In this document: piece by piece, positions 2 through 21,731 of the stretch | How positions within the stretch are numbered: position 1 is the stretch's first letter | How the letters are laid out: the number at the start of each line of letters is the position of its first letter | Virus record (IMG/VR): IMGVR_UViG_2698536536_000002 | Reading direction: 5' to 3' (one strand) | Source: a virus | Taxonomy: Duplodnaviria > Heunggongvirae > Uroviricota > Caudoviricetes | DNA length: 24,758 nucleotides | The notes under the pieces: model-generated | Told to the model about the DNA's origin: nothing | The model's database searches: none | The model's input: only the letters and a program-made list of their open reading frames with translations | Program-made: the position numbers and the translations under genes

Positions 2-1297
2 TTAATTTTTCATTGCTTCGTTATGGGGCATGGTTGGGGCAAACTCGCTTAACTGTGTATTTAACAAAGCTACCTGTGCATTATTGTTTTCAGACATCCA
101 TTTTCCGTATACCTGAAATACCATTTGCGCATCTGCATGGCCCATCTGGTTTGCTATAAATGCCGGGTTAGCACCAGCTGTCAGCGACCAGCAGGCATAA
201 GTATGTCTCGACTGATATGATTTTCGATGGCGGAGTCCGGCACGTTTTATCGCTGCGTCCCACATCTGCCTTATTGAGTCAACGGTAAAATGGTCACCAT
301 AATTTTTTACTCTCGCTGACACTTCAGGTTGAAAAACAAAGGTGCATTTTTGTTTTTCTGTTCTGCCATACTCTCTGAGGTGAACATCAATGATATGCTC
401 TTTGCTCAGTCTCGTTAATGTCATCTGACTCCGGAGAGCGTCGATTGCTGGCTTAATAAGATGAATGACCCGATTGGTTCCCGCCTGTGTTTTTGGTACC
501 GTGAAACGGTCTTTTGCTAAATTTCTCCTGATCATCATTGTTCCATTTTTCAGATCTATGTCCTCCCATCCAAGTGCACACAGCTCACCAGGGCGAACGC
601 CAGTATAAACAGAAACACACCATAAATTTTTTGCTTGCTGATTTCTGCACGCATCGATAAGACGGATAAATTCTTCCCGCGAAAGAGGATCCGGAATGGT
701 TCTTGATTCCTTTAATGGCGAGATCCCCTTAAACGGATTATCTGCCAGGTAACCGTTATCAACACCAAACTGGAACACGGCGTTAAGATTTGTCATGTAA
801 TTATTTACAGTTACAGCCGATCTCCCTGGTTGTGTAACAATATAGTTACTTTTGGGGATCTGGTATCCAGTCAGTAACTCTTTACGAACCTCCAGTAATT
901 TTTCTTTATTAATCGATGAGGCAAGATTTTTTTCACCGATTATGCTCAGGATATTTTTGATGACGGCACGGTATGTGTTGAGTGATGTTTTGGCGACTTC
1001 AGTTTCTTTCAGTGCCAGAAATTTTTCAGCCAGTTCTTTTATGGTTAAATCTTGTCGGGCCTCACCAAATTTTTCCAGATTGCGTGAGGAGGGAAACTGT
1101 TTTGCATAGTCGAAAACACCAGTTTTTATTGCGTAACAAACAGAGGAGCGTAGTTCACCTGCAACGCGCCTGTTTTTTGCTGTGTCAGGAACCCCCAGGT
1201 TTTCCCTGACTCTTACGCCTTTATAAACAAACCAGATACGTAATTTCCCTCCATGGTTTTCCACGCCTGTCGGATATTTCATTTCAACTTCTCTCAT
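2..1297 (-). CDS. Tyrosine-type phage integrase (lambda Int family)
   Basis: 431-aa ORF. C-terminal catalytic region carries the typical R...HxxR...Y signature context (…SRHTYACWSLTAGANPAFIANQMGHADAQMVFQVYGKWM…). Sits at the prophage edge, followed by an xis-like gene. Stop codon lies at window positions 2-4. Confidence 0.85.
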   Translation of the reverse strand: MREVEMKYPTGVENHGGKLRIWFVYKGVRVRENLGVPDTAKNRRVAGELRSSVCYAIKTGVFDYAKQFPSSRNLEKFGEARQDLTIKELAEKFLALKETEVAKTSLNTYRAVIKNILSIIGEKNLASSINKEKLLEVRKELLTGYQIPKSNYIVTQPGRSAVTVNNYMTNLNAVFQFGVDNGYLADNPFKGISPLKESRTIPDPLSREEFIRLIDACRNQQAKNLWCVSVYTGVRPGELCALGWEDIDLKNGTMMIRRNLAKDRFTVPKTQAGTNRVIHLIKPAIDALRSQMTLTRLSKEHIIDVHLREYGRTEKQKCTFVFQPEVSARVKNYGDHFTVDSIRQMWDAAIKRAGLRHRKSYQSRHTYACWSLTAGANPAFIANQMGHADAQMVFQVYGKWMSENNNAQVALLNTQLSEFAPTMPHNEAMKN

Positions 1298-9140: not shown

Positions 9141-10538
9141 TTATGCTTCATGTTGCTTTTTGAGATCGCTTCTAGCATAGCTCCACTCAATAATGTTGTC
9201 GGGTCGTTGCTGATCGAAAAGGATACGGGATTCAATACCATTACCTAAAAAGCTGGTATTCCCATCTACGTAAGAAGCTATCCCTTGTGAACCAACACGA
9301 AGAATATTTTCTAATGGCTGCTTTGTTCTTGCTGCATCGCTAAGGAGATATAAACCCGGGTACGTTTTGTTAGCACGGTGAAAAAAAAGTTCATTGTCAA
9401 AACACATGACGATGATTATTTGTCCCGACATGAGATCGGAGAGCATTTCAGTTGGCAGATGCAAACTCATAAATGGTCGAGACAAAGGGTCAAAGAATGA
9501 ATCATTTATATTCACAACAGGGCTTTTTATACCGAGACTATCCATCCATCCATTGAAGGCAACAAAGCCCATTTCAGAATCACGGTACATACCTAAGAAC
9601 AAACATTCATCAATAGTATCAATTGCCCAATTTTTTCCTCCGCGAATAATCTCCCACATTTTAACTAAGCGGTGGGTATAAAATTCAGACGGATGATCTA
9701 TCTCATTGATTTTAACTTTAGACTGATGAAAGTTGTCAAAGCCCTCGCCAGTATTAATCGCCTCCAGAACATTCATGCCACGAATGATTTGCCTTTTTAT
9801 GCGATTAAATTGCTTAACATCATTATCAGGCATATTGTTAATGAAGTTTTCTTCAAAGTGCGGACATTCTGAGATAACAGAAAATTCAGCAGCTTCATAA
9901 AGCTCATTATTCTTTTCACCTGTTTTAACTTCCACGAGCTGGAAGCCATCCAGTAGATTAAAGGTGACTAAATCTCCCACATGAACAAATGTGCTCATGT
10001 CAGAGACAATCGCTACGGAGTGTTTGTCCTGGTTGATAAGATCGGCTGCGACCATAGAATCAATTATGTTATCTTCTGATAGATTGTCATTGCTTGCATT
10101 AATAGGTAAACGCCGCAAACTAGAGTGTTCTTCATCAAGAATGCTCCAAATTATTGAGTCAATACAACGGCGAAGAATAAGAATTTCAAATTTTTTTAAA
10201 CTTATTTCATCAATACACTTTTCTTTATTTTCTTTATCCTTGTTTCGATGGTGCTCTTTTTTTTCAGTTTCCAATCTTTTTATATCTCTCAGCCGAATAA
10301 TAATCTCAAAAGATATGATTTTTTGTGAGTCTTTCCAATTTTTGAGACAGGTTTCATACTCTGCAAGAAAATCCTCATCATTGGAAGGTAGTTCTTGAAT
10401 TGGATTCCCTCCCCTTATCATTTTGGCAAGTGCATGCATTAAAGATACATAATGAGGTGATAAAATTGTCCAAAACTTCCTAAACGGTTTGTACTTTTCA
10501 AGAAAAGTTGACTCATCAGTATAATTCATCATAACCAA
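9141..10538 (-). CDS. Hypothetical 465-aa protein, possible PD-(D/E)xK-type nuclease; downstream partner of the AbiH-like gene
   Basis: Long AT-rich ORF with GAGG RBS. Central motif …AIVSDMSTFVHVGDLVTFNLLDGFQLVEVKTGEK… fits the D…(D/E)xK pattern of restriction-like nucleases (inference only). Co-oriented 83 bp downstream of the AbiH-like gene. Confidence 0.7.
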   Translation of the reverse strand: MVMMNYTDESTFLEKYKPFRKFWTILSPHYVSLMHALAKMIRGGNPIQELPSNDEDFLAEYETCLKNWKDSQKIISFEIIIRLRDIKRLETEKKEHHRNKDKENKEKCIDEISLKKFEILILRRCIDSIIWSILDEEHSSLRRLPINASNDNLSEDNIIDSMVAADLINQDKHSVAIVSDMSTFVHVGDLVTFNLLDGFQLVEVKTGEKNNELYEAAEFSVISECPHFEENFINNMPDNDVKQFNRIKRQIIRGMNVLEAINTGEGFDNFHQSKVKINEIDHPSEFYTHRLVKMWEIIRGGKNWAIDTIDECLFLGMYRDSEMGFVAFNGWMDSLGIKSPVVNINDSFFDPLSRPFMSLHLPTEMLSDLMSGQIIIVMCFDNELFFHRANKTYPGLYLLSDAARTKQPLENILRVGSQGIASYVDGNTSFLGNGIESRILFDQQRPDNIIEWSYARSDLKKQHEA

Positions 10539-10621: not shown

Positions 10622-11491
10622 TCAGATATCTTCATACTGTACGTAAGAAATATTTGAGCCTCTGATACCATAATCTTCTAAACTGCCTGATTTTTTCTCA
10701 CCTCTATATAAAGCAACTATCCATCGAGCATTTTCTTGGATGCTTTTATTTATTTCAGTAAAGTATTCACCGTCAACTTCGGCGAGCGAGTGGCCTAAAA
10801 CGATGACCTCGTCCACATTTTTAAGCGATGAGAAAAAAACGTTTTCTTCTTTAATTATGTCTTCGCTGGGCTTGAATGTATTACCGAAGTATTCGTTTAT
10901 TCTGTCGTATGCCTCTGCTATTCTTGTATCTTGATCCGGTCCTATATATGGATTTAGTGACTTTTCCACCCTAAAACTATGACCAAGTATGAGATCGTCA
11001 TCGTAACTACAATTGCCGTGAATATGTATGATTTGCTCGTCTGGAACGGCATAGATCTGCTGCAAGGTATTTGTATAATTAAATGAAAAATAGATGCTTT
11101 CTCTTGGTATGGGCGGGATGTATTGCTTAGGATTGTAAGCATCGGCTATGTTAATCCCTTTAACCCAATCAGCGAATTGCTCCTTCAAACGAGCTGACAG
11201 CATTTGTGTGATTTTATTTACTTCATATTGGTAATCGTGATGATAAGCATCGCTCCAATCATCGGTATTGTATGAAGCCAAAAATATCTCACTGTTTTGA
11301 AGGATAAGCTCATAATCAATTTCACCTAAAGCATTTTCTAACTCATTCCACTCGTCCCCAGCAGGAATGTATTCTTCTATCGCGTCATATAGATCTTGGT
11401 CATTTTTTTCTACATACGACTTAAAGTGCTTGTATCCTGTTGGTAAGCCATGACGCATGTCAAATCCATTTCCTATTATGTAAAGCCTCAT
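10622..11491 (-). CDS. AbiH-like abortive-infection family protein
   Basis: From the ATG at 11491 (AAGGGA RBS) the product begins MRLYIIGNGFDMRHGLPTGYKHF…, which matches the N-terminal signature I associate with AbiH-family proteins. AT-rich codon usage. The track's longer ORF begins at 11542. Confidence 0.6.
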   Translation of the reverse strand: MRLYIIGNGFDMRHGLPTGYKHFKSYVEKNDQDLYDAIEEYIPAGDEWNELENALGEIDYELILQNSEIFLASYNTDDWSDAYHHDYQYEVNKITQMLSARLKEQFADWVKGINIADAYNPKQYIPPIPRESIYFSFNYTNTLQQIYAVPDEQIIHIHGNCSYDDDLILGHSFRVEKSLNPYIGPDQDTRIAEAYDRINEYFGNTFKPSEDIIKEENVFFSSLKNVDEVIVLGHSLAEVDGEYFTEINKSIQENARWIVALYRGEKKSGSLEDYGIRGSNISYVQYEDI

Positions 11492-11807
11492 TGTTTTTCC
11501 CTTAGTCGAATTGTATAAAAATACTAACATGGCCTGCTCCACGTTGACTACTATCCCCTCCTTTGAGTAATGCCTTCATCAGATGTAACAACATTTGCGA
11601 GCTTCCACAGTTCGCTCAAAGCGGACTAGAAGGTTAGCTTGCGTCGGACTTGGCGTATTTAAAGAAGTGCTGGTGGAGACTGGTTGTTGTGTTCCATTTC
11701 TACAGAACAAAATCACAGAAACTATACCCAATAGTTATATTGAATCAATGATGAGACAGCCTCATATTTATCAGGACTGGTGTACGTCCAATACAGGAGG
11801 TTGTCGT

Positions 11808-14433: not shown

Positions 14434-15255
14434 ATGAAACTGGAAGATTTACCGAAATACTACTCCCCAAAATCCCCTGGCCTGACCGATGCATCGGCCT
14501 CAACGTCAAAAGATGCGCTGAGTATCACTGATGTGATGGCCGCGCAGGGCATGACACAGAATCGGGCTGAGATGGGTTTTTCTGCGTTCCTGGGGAAAAT
14601 GGGCATCAGTATGAATGACAGGGCGCGGGCAACAGAATTACTGGCAGATTATGCACTCAGTCGGTGCGATCGTGTGGCGGCGTTGAGAAAACTTCCGGCA
14701 GAAATAAAACCGGTAGTGATGCGCATTATGGCTTCGTACGCTTTTGAGGATTATGCCCGCAGCGCAGCGAGTAAAAAGCAGTGCCCTTGTTGCTATGGGG
14801 AAAAATTTATTGAAAGCATAGTTTTTACAAACAAGGTCCAGTATCCGGATGGTAAGCCGCCGGTATGGGCAAAGTGTACGAAAGGTGTGTATCCGTCTTA
14901 CTGGGAAGAATGGAAAAAAGTCAGGGAGGTGGTAAAAGTTGCCTGTCCGGAGTGTGGCGGAAAGGGTGAGGTTTCCACCGCCTGTAAGGATTGCCGTGGG
15001 CGTGGTGTCGCCATTCATCGTGAAGAGTCGGTAAAACGTGGTATGCCTGTTATCAGAGACTGCCAGCGTTGTGGTGGTCGTGGCTATGAAAGACTACCAT
15101 CAACGGAGGCATTTAATGCTATATGCGAGGTGACAAACCAGATAACACGCGCGTCATGGGAAAAAACAGTTAAGAAATTCTATGATGCGCTGGTGACCCG
15201 GTTTGATATTGAAGAAGCATGGGCTGAGCGGCAGTTAAAAAAGGTAACTAGGTAA
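14434..15255 (+). CDS. Late-gene antitermination protein Q
   Basis: 273 aa with a Cys-rich zinc-binding region (CPECGGKGE…CKDCRGRG…CQRCGGRGYE). Located immediately before a promoter/terminator/tRNA/lysis arrangement, as for lambdoid Q. Confidence 0.8.
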   Translation: MKLEDLPKYYSPKSPGLTDASASTSKDALSITDVMAAQGMTQNRAEMGFSAFLGKMGISMNDRARATELLADYALSRCDRVAALRKLPAEIKPVVMRIMASYAFEDYARSAASKKQCPCCYGEKFIESIVFTNKVQYPDGKPPVWAKCTKGVYPSYWEEWKKVREVVKVACPECGGKGEVSTACKDCRGRGVAIHREESVKRGMPVIRDCQRCGGRGYERLPSTEAFNAICEVTNQITRASWEKTVKKFYDALVTRFDIEEAWAERQLKKVTR

Positions 15256-15326: not shown

Positions 15327-15350
15327 AGTTTCTACAACCCGCCGCCGAGC
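15327..15350 (+). terminator. Intrinsic terminator downstream of Q (tR'-like target of Q antitermination)
   Basis: ACCCGC-CGCCGA-GCGGGT hairpin followed by TTTTTTATT. The late promoter and qut site are expected within 15256-15326 but could not be defined confidently. Confidence 0.5.
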
Positions 15351-15387
15351 GGGTTTTTTATTGCGGAATTAATTACGGACCGTTATT

Positions 15388-15463
15388 ATTCTGCTCCCGG
15401 CCCTTTAGCTCAGTGGTGAGAGCGAGCGACTCATAATCGCCAGGTCGCTGGTTCAAATCCAGC
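15388..15463 (+). tRNA. tRNA with CAU anticodon (tRNA-Ile2/ileZ-like, or Met)
   Basis: 76-nt cloverleaf drawn by hand: acceptor GGCCCTT/AAGGGCC, D-stem GCTC/GAGC, anticodon loop CTCATAA, T-stem GCTGG/CCAGC, T-loop TTCAAAT, 3' ACCA. Confidence 0.85.
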
Positions 15464-15564
15464 AAGGGCCACCATCACAAACCGCCATTAGCTTATCAGG
15501 AAGAGCAGACGACACGATAACAGGGTTGTTGGTGCGGGGGCGGGTCCCCGATGGCGGTCCATTA

Positions 15565-15641
15565 TCGGTATTCAGCGTTGTTAGCTCAGCCGGACAGAGC
15601 AATTGCCTTCTAAGCAATCGGTCACTGGTTCGAATCCAGTA
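15565..15641 (+). tRNA. tRNA-Arg (UCU anticodon; argN/argO/argU-like)
   Basis: 77-nt cloverleaf: acceptor GCGTTGT/ACAGCGC (one G-U), anticodon stem ATTGC/GCAAT with loop CTTCTAA, T-stem ACTGG/CCAGT, T-loop TTCGAAT, 3' GCCA. Confidence 0.85.
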
Positions 15642-15761
15642 CAGCGCGCCATATTCATTCTTCCAGATTCCTTCCGGCAGAGCCTTATACTGGAATATAC
15701 CTGGCTCAGGATATTGTTGAAAACATAATATGTTTGTCAAAAATAAAAGTTCTGTTAAGTA

Positions 15762-16115: not shown

Positions 16116-16645
16116 ATACATATCTGGATTATCACCTGTTACGGTAAAAAGTGATTGCTTACTGTTTTTGTGAATGGCATTGCAGCAGCCGGATAATGTC
16201 AGTGCTGGCTGACGGTGTGCTGGTGGCGGGTGTGGTGGTTGCTTTCCCGTTGCTGAAAAAGAAAACGCCAGACTGTTAGCCGGGTATCAGTTAGCGGGAG
16301 AAATTTTTAAATACTTCACAATTCAGGCGGTTGACTGTTCTCTGGTTTGCGGGGAGTTTGTTAAAAGAAACTGGCATGGTGAATCCCCCTGTGCGGAGGG
16401 GCAATCAGCGAGTAGGTATATGGGATAATCGCGGATTCAGGTGCTGGTACTGAATTCACCGGGAGGCACCCGGCACCATGCACTTAAATAGATTCTCTCC
16501 ACATTATGGATATTCTTTCAGAATATCCCACGCAGACTTTGTGTAAATGTTAACAAATGTGCGTTTTATTTGATCTGATTCGCTGTTTGAGCGTCCAAAA
16601 CAACGGTATATATAATCCTTTACTATATGACATATGTGAGAAAAA

Positions 16646-17074
16646 ATGGGTTTTCGTAGCGCATCAATTCTTACGTTGATTATTAGTGGGATTATTATCG
16701 GGTGCACTGATGCTGTATCGACAAATTATCATGACCGTACATCATCTTACTCCGATAAAACAATAGAGACACAGTATGTGAGTTCATCTGAACGTACTTC
16801 TGATGTTAGTGAGGATATCCGTCTGTATGCCCATCAAATCAAGAGCGCCATCGAAAAACAGTTCGGGGATGCGAGTAAGTATTCAGGAAAAGAGTGTACA
16901 CTGAGAATGCATATGGCCCCGAATGGCCTTCTACTGGAGGTTAAAAGAGAAAGTGGAGACCTCGATTTATGTCGTGAAGCGATGAATGCGATAAAGAATG
17001 CTGATATACCTGCCCCCCCTTCGCCGGAAGTATATAAAGTATTTCAAAATGGGGTGCTGGATTTTAAACCCTGA
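16646..17074 (+). CDS. Lipoprotein with TolA C-terminal (domain III)-like domain
   Basis: Signal peptide plus lipobox (…LIISGIIIGC). C-terminal …YAHQIKSAIEKQFGDASKYSGKECTLRMHMAPNGLLLEVKRESGDLDLCREAMNAIKNADIPAPPSPEVYKVFQNGVLDFKP closely parallels the remembered C-terminus of E. coli TolA, including both cysteines and the terminal LDFKP. Candidate promoter TTGAGC-18-TATAAT at 16587-16616. Confidence 0.75.
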   Translation: MGFRSASILTLIISGIIIGCTDAVSTNYHDRTSSYSDKTIETQYVSSSERTSDVSEDIRLYAHQIKSAIEKQFGDASKYSGKECTLRMHMAPNGLLLEVKRESGDLDLCREAMNAIKNADIPAPPSPEVYKVFQNGVLDFKP

Positions 17075-17224
17075 TATTTATTGTTTTGTAATAAACGGTT
17101 TCGGCTTAGGTTTGTTCTGACACAACTACGGCACTGAGCTAAATTTAGCGGATAGTCAGCTCTGAGCCAGTGGCGGACGTAACAACTACTATTGCTGAGA
17201 TTTTAATGGATTGAGGAGCAAGAA

Positions 17225-17620
17225 GTGGGATTAAAGAAAATCGTTATGTTGACTTTTTGGGGCGGTTTTGTTGCGGGATGCACACCTTTACACCCTTCAG
17301 ATTGCCACAAAACTACTGCTACAGGTAGTTGCAGTTCAGGACGCTGGGATGATCAGGATGAATGGGGGGCGCAAGCGCGGGGAATCAGAGCTGCAATTAA
17401 TGCCAAACTTGATGAGCCGCATAACTGGAAAGGGAAAATATGCAGGTTGCATATGGAATTCTCTCAGGATGGCACGGCGTTAAAAATATCTACCAGTAAC
17501 GGTGATAAAGCCTATTGCGAAGCGATAAAGTCCGCAGCTCATAAAGCCAAATTTCCGGCCTTCAACAATCCGGAAGTCTACAGAGATTTTCAGAAATCTG
17601 GCTTTGACATGCGAGGTTAG
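17225..17620 (+). CDS. Lipoprotein, diverged paralogue of the TolA domain III-like lipoprotein
   Basis: GTG start with GAGGAG RBS. Signal peptide plus lipobox (…FVAGC). C-terminal domain keeps the same Cys…Cys spacing and PEVY motif (…ICRLHMEFSQDGTALKISTSNGDKAYCEAIKSAAHKAKFPAFNNPEVYRDFQKSGFDMR). Confidence 0.65.
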   Translation: MGLKKIVMLTFWGGFVAGCTPLHPSDCHKTTATGSCSSGRWDDQDEWGAQARGIRAAINAKLDEPHNWKGKICRLHMEFSQDGTALKISTSNGDKAYCEAIKSAAHKAKFPAFNNPEVYRDFQKSGFDMRG

Positions 17621-17871
17621 CTCTTCAATTACTATATCTCATTCATAGCAAACTGACAGATTTGATGATGTTCTATATACGAAACCTGTGATGTCAAGTC
17701 TGAGCTAATACAAATAAACATAATATCAGAGAAATACATTTTATTAGCTCGCTACGGCGAGCTTTTTATATTGCATCGTCTCCAGCATATATATCAATTA
17801 AGGCTCTGATTGATGTGTCTGGAAGCCTACACATAATAACTATGCCATCCGTTCCGTGCGGAGGTGAGGCT

Positions 17872-18087
17872 ATGAAATCCATGGACAAAATTTCAACAGG
17901 CATTGCCTACGGCACCTCCGCAGGCAGTGCTGGCTACTGGTTTTTACAGCTGCTCGATAAAGTCACGCCCTCACAGTGGGCAGCAATAGGTGTGCTGGGT
18001 AGCCTGGTATTTGGCCTGCTGACGTACCTGACAAACCTTTATTTCAAGATTAAAGAAGACAAGCGTAAGGCTGCACGGGGAGAGTAA
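17872..18087 (+). CDS. Class II holin (phage 21 S-type pinholin-like) with dual-start motif
   Basis: 71 aa, [71 protein letters not shown], with two TM segments and a charged C-terminus. Met-Lys-Ser-Met dual start and GGAGGTGAGG RBS. Closely resembles my recollection of S21. Confidence 0.85.
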
Positions 18088-19831: not shown

Positions 19832-20019
19832 CTGGTATGATGATGTTGAGAAGGCGGCACAGCAGGAGCTGTAATCGACGAGTGCTAATCTAGCACAATT
19901 GAGTTCACAAATTGTCTACTTTTGCTATATTGCAACCGATGCCAACAGCCTTTTTTGAGCAAAAATCATAAATGTTATCGTGTTGGCAGTTTTTTTCTTT
20001 GACGACACGGAATGATTTT

Positions 20020-20442
20020 ATGTCAGAAGTAGCTGTTGAACTTGAAGAGGATTCTTGGCCTGATTTTTTCCCGGTTGGAGTACCGCCGAAATCAGCCGTC
20101 CCTGCTGAGGGCGAGTTTTTCCGTTTGGTAAGGTCTAATCCACCAACCCCTGCATGTTTCCTCTCTACACATGAAGAGTATCCGCAGCGGCACAAAAAGT
20201 ATCGTGGGGAAGCACTTCAGTGTGTCTATGGAACATCATTCTTTTCAGAATCGCGCGGGGCTACGGATGCAAAAGCTAAATTTCCTGCAGCTCTTGGTCA
20301 TCGACTCGTTGCTAGTGGTCAGATCACCCCCGTTTTCGGAGTAATGAAAAAAACATTTGCCGATCCAGCGCACTACACAATTTGGCTTAAGCGTAATTGT
20401 GCTATTCATGAACATTTTCACTGTATAGGAGAAGGCGTATGA
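20020..20442 (+). CDS. Hypothetical 140-aa protein (first gene of unknown two-gene cargo operon)
   Basis: ATG at 20020. Stop overlaps the start of the next gene (ATGA at 20439-20442). No recognised domain. C-terminal HEHFHC cluster could bind metal (speculative). Confidence 0.5.
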   Translation: MSEVAVELEEDSWPDFFPVGVPPKSAVPAEGEFFRLVRSNPPTPACFLSTHEEYPQRHKKYRGEALQCVYGTSFFSESRGATDAKAKFPAALGHRLVASGQITPVFGVMKKTFADPAHYTIWLKRNCAIHEHFHCIGEGV

Positions 20443-21731
20443 GTAACGTTTTTCTACCTAATACAATGATGGGCACTCTATGTTACAAAAGAGTTTATGA
20501 GTTCTTCGAAGAGCCTCGCTTCTTTTCAGTTGAAAATGAAGTTAGTACACTTTTTATCGTTTACTGGATTGGTGAGGATGATGAATGTGATAGTTGGTTT
20601 ATCATACCAATTTCTCCAGGGCGATTAGAGTTGATTGAAAGAAAAAGAATATGTATCCGTGATGCTTTGATTAATCAGGAGCAAAACTTTTTCTATGAAG
20701 CCCATATACCATACGATCGTACAGGCAAAGTGACTTGGCTGAGTAAAAACTTGGTTGATATATTTGAAATACCTTTGCCTGTTTCTGAACTATATATAAG
20801 TTCGGTAGTTCCAGTAATGCCAAATGGTAAACTGGGCGAGGCTATTACTTACTCAACTCATGAGATCCATTTAGAAAAAAGCTCAAAGAAAAGTGCAAAA
20901 AATTTGGTTTTAAGTCATGTGTCAAACGTATGCGACAGATTCAGCGATCTTTATGACAGAATGCTGGAGATGGCAAAGTGCAAAGATAAATTACGTCCTG
21001 TCGATGCGCGGCCTGGTTCCTTTATCATTTCTTTTAAAGCTGAGAAATTACATTCCTTTGAAGACACTTTTAAAGAATTAAGCAGGCTGATAGAACTTAG
21101 AGCTGATATTATTCCTTTTGTTTTCGAAAAGGGTATTGATGTTCCAGCTTTGACAGATCTCTTACAATCCATAGTTGAAACCGGAACGAATATGGAACTC
21201 AAAAGCAACCAGACAGGTGAATTAGCTTTTGTTATTACAAAAGCTGGTGCTGAGTTCTATTTAAAAAAATTATCACGTCTTTCTACCTCATTGGTTGGAG
21301 GGCATCAAATACCTCAAGCAGATGTCCTCGAGACAGTTTATAAATTAGTGGAAATTGTTTGGAGTGGCGAACCACTTACTCCTATTAATACTGGTTTGCA
21401 AGATAGACATATCTACTATTATAAGCATGCAGCTAAAGTTTTGGGATTACTTGATAGCTTTGGTAATGTCACAACGTCTGGTCAACAACTCGTACAAAGT
21501 GATGAGATGACTAGACATAAAATTGCAGCGAGAAAATTTGAAGTGAGTCATGTGGGATGGGCTTGGATAAATTGGGCCAGTGTTGAACATTTATCCCAAA
21601 TTGATCCTGACAGCGCTTTAGACTTTCTATTGGAGCAATGCCACTCTTTAAGTCGTGATACTATTGAACGACGTGCTACAACTATTAAACACTGGTGCCG
21701 TGAATTGAAAAATTATTATACACCTCTGTAA
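20439..21731 (+). CDS. Hypothetical 430-aa protein (second gene of unknown two-gene cargo operon)
   Basis: Long AT-rich ORF translationally coupled to the upstream gene and followed by an intrinsic terminator. No recognisable catalytic motif by eye. Confidence 0.7.
   Translation: MSNVFLPNTMMGTLCYKRVYEFFEEPRFFSVENEVSTLFIVYWIGEDDECDSWFIIPISPGRLELIERKRICIRDALINQEQNFFYEAHIPYDRTGKVTWLSKNLVDIFEIPLPVSELYISSVVPVMPNGKLGEAITYSTHEIHLEKSSKKSAKNLVLSHVSNVCDRFSDLYDRMLEMAKCKDKLRPVDARPGSFIISFKAEKLHSFEDTFKELSRLIELRADIIPFVFEKGIDVPALTDLLQSIVETGTNMELKSNQTGELAFVITKAGAEFYLKKLSRLSTSLVGGHQIPQADVLETVYKLVEIVWSGEPLTPINTGLQDRHIYYYKHAAKVLGLLDSFGNVTTSGQQLVQSDEMTRHKIAARKFEVSHVGWAWINWASVEHLSQIDPDSALDFLLEQCHSLSRDTIERRATTIKHWCRELKNYYTPL

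Follow-up and report, generated by a model that had tools for sequence, protein, structure and literature searches.

The small phage outer-membrane lipoproteins Cor (of phi80, N15 and HK022) and Llp (of T5) block the entry of phages and of some colicins and inactivate FhuA. Domain III of TolA (TolA III) provides a second described point of interference with entry: in work of 1993 attributed to Levengood-Freyermuth, TolA III placed in the periplasm reportedly made cells tolerant to colicins E1, E2, E3 and A, and not to the Ton-dependent colicin D. The C-terminal strand of this domain, β3, binds colicin N and the N1 domain of the filamentous-phage protein g3p (g3p-N1), and is also the site for the N-terminus of TolB (PMC7391070, PMC4339652). 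Periplasmic g3p-N1 in turn blocks phage and colicin A, an effect that was ascribed to sequestration of TolA (PMC10424213) and that indicates that the TolA III interface is saturable in vivo. Here we describe two open reading frames, ORF1 and ORF2, in IMG/VR record IMGVR_UViG_2698536536_000002, a stretch of 24,758 nucleotides that we refer to as the window and that is an E. coli lambdoid prophage. Both encode short predicted lipoproteins that end in a TolA III domain. On the strength of their sequences and by analogy with the systems above, we propose, at about an even chance of being right, that they form a moron cassette of periplasmic decoys of the TolA tip that would confer tolerance to Tol-dependent colicins and to filamentous phages.

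Comparison with these systems brings out both likenesses and differences. The two prophage proteins have the fold and the disulfide cysteine pair of TolA III (PDB 1TOL, 3QDP/3QDR, 2X9A and 1S62), and ORF1 shares the LDFKP of TolA as well. They differ from TolA in lacking domains I and II, in lying outside tol-pal and in carrying a lipoprotein signal, and so could not draw energy from TolQR. Engineered periplasmic TolA III is likewise free and uncoupled from TolQR and constitutes a direct experimental precedent (Levengood-Freyermuth 1993; Wan and Baneyx 1998), but it was artificial, soluble and overproduced, whereas the prophage proteins are natural, diverged, predicted to be lipid-anchored and present in two versions. 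Cor and Llp target a surface receptor and do not copy a host domain, while the proposed target of ORF1 and ORF2 is the ligand by which an invader engages a periplasmic co-receptor. Filamentous-phage g3p immunity uses the same interface to block Tol-dependent entry (PMC10424213), with the roles exchanged: in g3p immunity the phage supplies the ligand and host TolA becomes saturated, whereas here a copy of TolA would saturate the incoming ligand. A further likeness is to other mobile-element TolA-III lipoproteins (PHROG 5772; WP_001348108, WP_001453090, WP_001335086 and WP_001237044), which have the same architecture of lipobox and TolA_C domain and are annotated by domain only, as 'cell envelope integrity TolA C-terminal domain-containing protein'. 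Databases already carry the domain annotation, and free TolA III has long been known to act as a dominant negative; what is new is that ORF1 and ORF2 belong to a large mobile-element family of TolA-III lipoproteins of about 120-150 amino acids. Our survey of the literature, which left subscription journals largely outside its coverage, returned no functional study of mobile-element TolA-III lipoproteins and gene-list mentions only (PMC6854850, PMC10269471).

A reading of the window made from its letters alone (the sequence-only reading) had placed two lipoprotein genes with lipoboxes IIGC and VAGC at this site, and both genes and both lipoboxes are found exactly there. ORF1 (16646-17074, plus strand, ATG start) encodes a predicted outer-membrane lipoprotein of 142 amino acids with a C-terminal TolA III domain. 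Its signal peptide and lipobox IIGC are encoded by 16646-16705 (plus strand), with the codon of Cys20, the predicted lipidation site, at 16703-16705 and Thr at position +2; the signal region, MGFRSASILTLIISGIIIGC followed by TD, has a charged n-region, a hydrophobic h-region and the lipobox. Cys20 is invariant in 16 family members despite their differing signal peptides (MGFRSAS... versus MYCRAVP...). A Ser/Thr-rich linker follows (residues 21-53, 16706-16804, plus strand) that is predicted to be disordered, with a predicted local distance difference test score (pLDDT) below 50 at residues 17-51 of a single-sequence model. The TolA III domain itself (residues 54-142, 16805-17071, plus strand) contains β2 (LLEVKR), the C84/C109 pair and β3 (VLDFKP). 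It matches the Pfam family of the TolA C-terminus, PF06519, over residues 49-140 (E=2.3e-23, 82.6 bits), and against sequences from the PDB, residues 55-142 align without a gap to residues 334-421 of E. coli TolA (E=5e-28). The identity over this alignment is 59%, with both cysteines and the terminal LDFKP in place, which bears out the statement in the sequence-only reading that ORF1 tracks the C-terminus of TolA almost residue by residue.

ORF2 (17225-17620, plus strand) starts with GTG and encodes a 131-amino-acid predicted outer-membrane lipoprotein with lipobox VAGC (Cys19, with Thr at +2) and a TolA III domain at residues 44-131. Its signal region, MGLKKIVMLTFWGGFVAGC followed by TP, is likewise composed of a charged n-region, a hydrophobic h-region and the lipobox. 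The RefSeq annotation pipeline PGAP places the start at a later ATG, at about 17246 (coding sequence 9847-10221 in the homologous locus L001). The GTG start at 17225 is supported by the Shine-Dalgarno sequence GAGGAG at 17213-17218 (plus strand) and by orthologues with ATG at that position; the block GGATTGAGGAGCAAGAA[A/G]TG is kept in ORF2 orthologues from plasmids and from other genera. ORF2 matches PF06519 over residues 44-125 (E=2.9e-14, 53.5 bits), and its residues 50-129 align with TolA 340-419 among PDB sequences (E=5e-9). An AlphaFold2 model of ORF2, computed on a 19-sequence alignment, has a pLDDT of 82-96 over residues 40-131 and below 50 over residues 1-38, which comprise the signal peptide and tether. 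Its topology is α1-β1-β2-α2-α3-β3, with helices at residues 46-61, 95-107 and 116-123 and strands at 72-79, 85-93 and 126-130. With Foldseek the model superposes on TolA III in 3QDP with a root-mean-square deviation of 1.1 Å over 86 columns and a target-normalised TM score of 0.92, and its top matches are all TolA III structures, including the complexes with g3p and colicin A. The structural interpretation given in the sequence-only reading, a lipoprotein signal joined to a TolA III domain, is supported by these results.

Between the lipobox and the domain, ORF2 has a feature of its own. The mature N-terminus TPLHPSDCHKTTATGSCSSGRWDDQDEW (residues 20-48, 17282-17368) hardly varies between genera and contributes two cysteines (C-x-PLHPS-x-CHKTTATGSCSSGRWDDQDEW) for which TolA has no counterpart. 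We considered whether a part of it, SSGRWDDQDEWG, mimics a TolB box by comparison with the ColE9 sequence DGSGWSSENNPWG, and rejected this as weak, as the second Trp lies inside model helix α1 and the spacing differs.

Several properties are common to the two proteins, whose mutual identity is only about 27%. Both score above the PF06519 gathering score of 25. The cysteine pairs C84/C109 of ORF1 and C73/C98 of ORF2 align with C363/C388 of TolA, with a spacing of 25 residues in all three, and the pair is invariant in 17 of 17 aligned sequences. The motif PEVY, noted earlier in ORF2 together with this cysteine spacing, is indeed there and occurs in ORF1 also; the TolA equivalent is QAVY. The lipobox Cys, scored with the pattern [LVI][ASTVI][GAS]C, is invariant across the families of both ORF1 and ORF2. 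Under the established +2 rule for Lol sorting of lipoproteins, the presence of Thr and absence of Asp at +2 in either protein leads us to predict that both are probably tethered in the outer membrane, at its inner leaflet. The membrane tether first ascribed to them is therefore retained as far as the lipoprotein signal goes, with the membrane now specified as the outer one by this prediction.

Neither ORF1 nor ORF2 is a TolA orthologue. The inner-membrane anchor that couples TolA to TolQR (domain I) and the long, Ala/Lys-rich helical domain II that spans the periplasm are absent from both proteins, which at 142 and 131 amino acids have only a linker of 20-35 residues before the domain, and both genes lie outside the tol-pal operon. 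The full-length TolA models are matched only at their ends, PRK09510 at positions 293-386 of 387 and TIGR02794 at 261-362 of 362. With PRK09510 both proteins (108 bits for ORF1, 54 bits for ORF2) fall below the cutoff of 213; with TIGR02794 (cutoff 59.45) ORF1 passes at 75.9 by way of the C-terminal third only and ORF2 fails at 46. At E<=1, Pfam gave only TolA_C, TonB_2 and a sub-threshold MID51-like_C for the two proteins, with no homology to Cor or Llp among these matches, and no PADLOC defence model matched either of them. In PHROGs they are placed together in phrog_5772, which is listed as 'unknown function'.

Such partial matches bear on whether these are genes at all. PGAP calls ORF1 a pseudogene ('tolA, incomplete, missing N-terminus') at the homologous locus of strain PI7 (L001, 9415-9675), and this label implies that the two frames are non-functional debris, fragments of host tolA captured by a phage. 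In keeping with it, matches to the NCBIfam equivalog models are confined to the C-terminal third of TolA. Moreover, ORF1 contains a C7 homopolymer at 17012-17018, just before α3 and β3, and frameshifted C6 and C9 variants in which the end of β3 is replaced are found among proteins from metagenome assemblies (P0010 and P0015). Against this, C7 is in frame in 83 of the 83 loci that were fetched, and PGAP itself annotates the diverged ORF1 variant of another locus (L012) as a full coding sequence. ORF1 variants that are 65-73% identical have a different signal peptide (MYCRAVPVLVLILASLTTGC) and yet keep the lipobox Cys and the Thr at +2, so that the frame and its new lipoprotein signal are intact in variants with as little as 65% identity. 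The ratio of nonsynonymous to synonymous substitution rates (dN/dS) of ORF1 against a variant with 80% nucleotide identity is 0.36 for the whole gene, 0.28 for the domain and 0.43 for codons 1-53, the signal and linker, which are its fastest-evolving part. For ORF2, dN/dS is 0.08-0.13 against seven chromosomal orthologues of other genera and two plasmid orthologues. Additionally, both genes occur at fixed spacing in 77 of 80 viral contigs, the other three of which end just past ORF1, and at least 60 clusters at 50% identity have the same architecture. ORF1 and ORF2 are under purifying selection, and in view of this selection and conservation we reject the debris interpretation as very improbable. 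The tolA-pseudogene label of RefSeq consequently hides, in many genomes, an intact ORF1 gene under selection. Phase variation at the C7 run was considered separately and rejected, given the constancy of the run in all 83 loci.

What these domains might bind can be judged from the surfaces by which TolA III is docked. The substitutions D418P and K420P in β3 of TolA abolish binding of g3p-N1 and colicin N (PMC4339652). In ORF1, β3 (VLDFKP) is one residue away from that of TolA (PLDFKP) and the equivalents of D418 and K420 are kept; in ORF2, β3 reads GFDMRG, with the Asp kept and the Lys replaced by Arg. The D418 equivalent is invariant in the families of both. The site for colicin A on TolA consists of L375-P380 in β2 together with K368, K379 and K396 (PMC3365938). 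This site is mostly kept in ORF1 (LLEVKR, H89, K100 and K117) and lost in ORF2 (ALKIST, E78, S89 and H106). Given the loss of the colicin A contact residues from ORF2, the two proteins probably have different ligands.

The divergence of ORF2 also gives room to the idea that the TolA III fold has been re-used as an outer-membrane binding module for a ligand unrelated to the parasites of TolA. The roles that can be imagined for such a module include receptor masking in the style of Cor and Llp, attachment to an outer-membrane or peptidoglycan-associated partner, and protection against some other envelope-crossing toxin or a tailed phage. Both of the known docking edges of TolA are altered in ORF2, which also has the conserved N-terminal stretch with its two extra cysteines, and the lack of a PADLOC match and of an assigned function for PHROG 5772 fits this idea equally. 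It is credible mainly for ORF2. For ORF1 it has to contend with the 59% identity to E. coli TolA, which exceeds its identity to any other representative of the short lipoproteins described below (50% or less), and with a β3 that is a single residue off. Across 60 of these representatives β3 is the segment best conserved with respect to E. coli TolA (0.54 identity versus 0.44 overall), and the fact that bacteriocin plasmids pair one relative with a TonB C-terminal domain, as also described below, points to import machineries. On balance we regard re-use for an unrelated ligand as unlikely.

The decoy proposal, which we favor, had been put forward in the sequence-only reading and is strengthened by comparative findings that were not available to it: ORF1 keeps the β3 docking strand with the equivalents of D418 and K420, and the family is carried by bacteriocin plasmids, I-complex conjugative plasmids and pO157 and occurs beside defence genes. 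It would operate as follows. After export and lipidation at the lipobox Cys, the Lol pathway would deliver both proteins to the outer membrane's inner leaflet, where each would present a free TolA III domain on a tether of 20-35 residues near porins, pilus entry sites and TolB-Pal. There the decoys would capture g3p-N1 and, from those group A colicins that bind TolA and from related bacteriocins, the translocation domains; the TolB N-terminus, once activated by a colicin, may be captured as well. A decoy without domains I and II would be uncoupled from TolQR, and for that reason the captured ligands would not be drawn into the cell, which would make the lysogen tolerant. ORF1 would act as a close mimic with both known docking edges, and ORF2, with its different β2 face, would probably cover other ligands. 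Modest expression could titrate invaders with little damage to Tol-Pal, since TolA III binds the parasite ligands colicin N and g3p with affinities of about 1-12 µM, as compared to about 40 µM for TolB (PMC4339652).

A number of points weigh against this proposal. The single-sequence AlphaFold2 model of ORF1 is poor (pLDDT 55) and shows α1, β1, β2 and α2, so that the fold assignment of ORF1 rests on its 59% sequence identity to TolA. ORF2 is without all three of the lysines that make cation-π contacts with colicin A, and its β3 differs from that of TolA. A TolA III decoy that binds TolB and damages the envelope could be costly to the cell. Expression in the lysogen is a further point. The sigma-70-like promoter seen in the sequence-only reading corresponds to TTGAGC-18 nt-TATAAT at 16587-16616 (plus strand), 30 nt 5' of ORF1, which matches the consensus at 10 of 12 positions in our scan; it is a consensus match only and is not kept 5' of the diverged ORF1 variant in locus L012. 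Upstream of ORF2, no clear -35 or -10 element could be assigned in the aligned orthologue loci. Finally, Q-dependent late transcription is expected to read through the cassette as well, and as part of this late transcript the cassette could be expressed chiefly in the lytic cycle rather than in the lysogen.

Late expression is the starting point of another explanation, in which TolA III domains made late in infection bind the TolB N-terminus or another Tol partner, loosen the outer membrane and aid virion release through vesiculation or leakiness. The position of the cassette is compatible with this, as it lies between Q, which is followed by a terminator-like hairpin (15336-15355, a consensus match only), and the holin gene, where late read-through is expected. 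According to the part of PMC6195910 that cites Wan and Baneyx, excess periplasmic TolA III makes the outer membrane leaky, tol mutants hyper-vesiculate (PMC7391070), and TolB uses the same β3 site that is kept in ORF1 (PMC7391070, PMC4339652). However, the affinity for TolB is low, at about 40 µM, and a holin, a lysozyme and an Rz-type spanin are already present in the prophage. The cassette also has its own promoter-like and terminator-like sites, which bracket the ORF1/ORF2 pair as consensus matches only; the latter is a hairpin with a T-run (17746-17763, to 17771 with the T-run, plus strand, from the consensus scan) that has a 7-bp stem with five G-C pairs followed by TTTTTATATTG and lies 5' of the holin gene. 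The ORF2 family resides mostly outside phages, on chromosomes, pO157 and conjugative plasmids, and is under strong purifying selection there, where a lysis helper would have no role. We therefore consider sabotage of Tol-Pal quite improbable, below even the re-use of the fold for an unrelated ligand.

The distribution of the two genes is extensive. Among 5426 complete E. coli genomes, ORF1 is present in 898, almost always on the chromosome, and ORF2 in 1269, or roughly 1 in 6 and 1 in 4 genomes, respectively. The ORF2 places fall into 826 that are chromosomal with at least 99% nucleotide identity and 536 that are on plasmids with about 87%. The cassette as such behaves as a moron trait, being present in some E. 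coli genomes and absent from others (772-898 of the 5426 carry it). Among deposited phage genomes, the ORF1/ORF2 pair is found in mEp460_ev081 only. In locus L012 a diverged ORF1 stands alone after Q, a methylase gene, tRNA-Ile and tRNA-Arg and 5' of a nanS-p-like esterase gene, which is the site where Stx phages carry stx.

ORF2 orthologues with 80-95% amino-acid identity are present on about 606 PLSDB plasmids. For example, pO157 carries one in its leading region, close to toxB (WP_001453090), and others lie directly 3' of the relaxase gene on I-complex (IncK2/Z) conjugative plasmids (WP_001335086); the loci concerned are L013 4964-5395, L116 3465-3896 and L010 6815-7246. The pO157 and I-complex proteins are 86-87% identical to ORF2 in amino-acid sequence. 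I-type pili are the receptor of filamentous phage IF1. It is the g3p of IF1 that is bound to TolA III in PDB entry 2X9A. Chromosomal, single-copy members of the ORF2 family also occur in about 20 Enterobacterales species, from genera that include Enterobacter, Citrobacter, Klebsiella, Raoultella, Leclercia, Kluyvera, Buttiauxella, Pantoea, Rouxiella and Yokenella, at non-syntenic sites among housekeeping genes. A conserved chromosomal operon partner of these orthologues was sought and rejected, as synteny is absent beyond the genus level. One ORF2 orthologue adjoins GmrSD and HEPN defence genes. The earlier description of ORF2 as simply a diverged paralogue of ORF1 is corrected by this distribution: ORF2 belongs to a separate subfamily that has spread widely, occurring alone on the chromosomes of some 20 species and also on about 600 plasmids.

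Beyond these two subfamilies, a profile search of 1.84 billion representatives recovered 597 relatives. Within the best 150 of the 597, about 60 clusters at 50% identity consist of proteins of 118-150 amino acids with a lipobox and a TolA III domain. Their C-termini typically read LDFKP, LDFKL or LDFRP, a lipobox is present in 58-60 of the short representatives, depending on the pattern used, and Asp is found at +2 in none of the 58 that were scored. Taxon names were available for two of ten short-lipoprotein clusters, Dryocola and Pseudescherichia. A tblastn search with ORF1 detected TolA-III-like sequence on 1307 plasmids. On Klebsiella ColRNAI plasmids of about 10 kb, the gene for a 123-amino-acid TolA_C lipoprotein overlaps that for a 121-amino-acid TonB_C protein with a Sec signal (L009 5908-6641 on Klebsiella pneumoniae plasmid pKP46_5), and the pair adjoins an operon for a cloacin-like tRNase bacteriocin, its immunity protein and lysis. 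This lipoprotein (WP_001237044) is a more distant relative of ORF1 and ORF2, and it differs from the prophage arrangement in being paired with a secreted TonB C-terminal domain and not with a second TolA III. PMC10269471 lists the Klebsiella plasmid genes without comment. The pair may represent decoys for both import systems. In a separate observation, a Klebsiella IncFII plasmid (L011 6229-7258) has a gene for a thioredoxin-fold, DsbA-like protein directly 5' of that for a 144-amino-acid TolA_C lipoprotein, and this neighbour may be linked to the TolA III disulfide.

Taken together, the gene neighbourhoods on bacteriocin plasmids, on I-complex plasmids and on pO157 and next to defence genes fit a protective role that is not specific to phages. 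An extension of the decoy proposal, to which we give somewhat less than an even chance, is that periplasmic decoy copies of the TolA and TonB C-terminal domains constitute a widespread and so far unrecognised class of mobile-element immunity. Such a class would confer a broad tolerance, independent of cognate immunity proteins, that extends to bacteriocins depending on Tol or Ton and to filamentous phages depending on pili. Conjugative plasmids would thereby compensate for the exposure to phages that their own pili bring, and prophages and pO157 would protect the bacteria that carry them in the gut. The closeness of ORF1 to TolA, both overall and in β3, would then reflect selection to keep mimicking its target.

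The surroundings of the cassette are those of a lambdoid prophage. In window order, the genes are those for integrase (2-1297, minus strand), exonuclease, a helix-turn-helix repressor-like protein, YdaT, AbiH, DUF968, RusA, Q and two tRNAs, followed by the two TolA-like genes, a P21-type holin, DUF1327, lysozyme, an Rz-like gene and terminase. ORF1 and ORF2 thus lie between Q with its tRNAs and the holin, which agrees with the moron-site position assigned to them at the outset. The late antiterminator Q (14434-15255, plus strand) matches Pfam Antiterm PF03589 (E=6.3e-55). The two phage tRNA genes (15399-15474 and 15575-15651, plus strand), supported by ARAGORN, Rfam and the PGAP annotation of the homologous locus, have a CAT anticodon (tRNA-Ile according to PGAP) and a TCT anticodon (tRNA-Arg). 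A strong match to the small RNA STnc100 (Rfam RF02076; 16345-16535, plus strand; 113 bits versus a gathering score of 47) is located between these tRNAs and the promoter-like site of ORF1. The P21-type holin gene (17872-18087, plus strand; Pfam PF04971, E=8.7e-36) is the first lysis gene 3' of the cassette. Two further regions contain candidate defence genes. Between the Rz-like gene and terminase, the overlapping genes at 19972-20442 and 20439-21731 (plus strand) are a candidate two-gene anti-phage defence moron, with weak PADLOC matches to PD-T4-10_A (E=1e-5) and PD-T4-10_B (E=2.8e-4) and Pfam DUF6575 in the second gene. On the minus strand, the neighbouring pair at 10622-11542 and 9141-10538 includes an AbiH abortive-infection gene (Pfam E=8e-69, together with a PADLOC AbiH match) and an adjoining 465-amino-acid open reading frame for which no Pfam or PADLOC family match was obtained.

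If the decoy proposal is correct, ORF1 and ORF2 would exclude entry through mimicry of a periplasmic co-receptor and not, in the manner of Cor and Llp, through masking of a surface receptor, and they would be natural host-domain mimics used defensively in the periplasm. At least 1300 plasmids, which include pO157, I-complex resistance plasmids and Klebsiella bacteriocin plasmids, encode TolA-III-like sequence that tblastn detects. As decoys, these proteins would represent a common and overlooked determinant of tolerance to colicins and other bacteriocins and of resistance to filamentous phages. This would have a bearing on competition in the gut, on bacteriocin and phage therapeutics, on phage display and on the choice of hosts for M13. 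It would also provide natural, tunable inhibitors of TolA III interactions for research on the Tol-Pal system.

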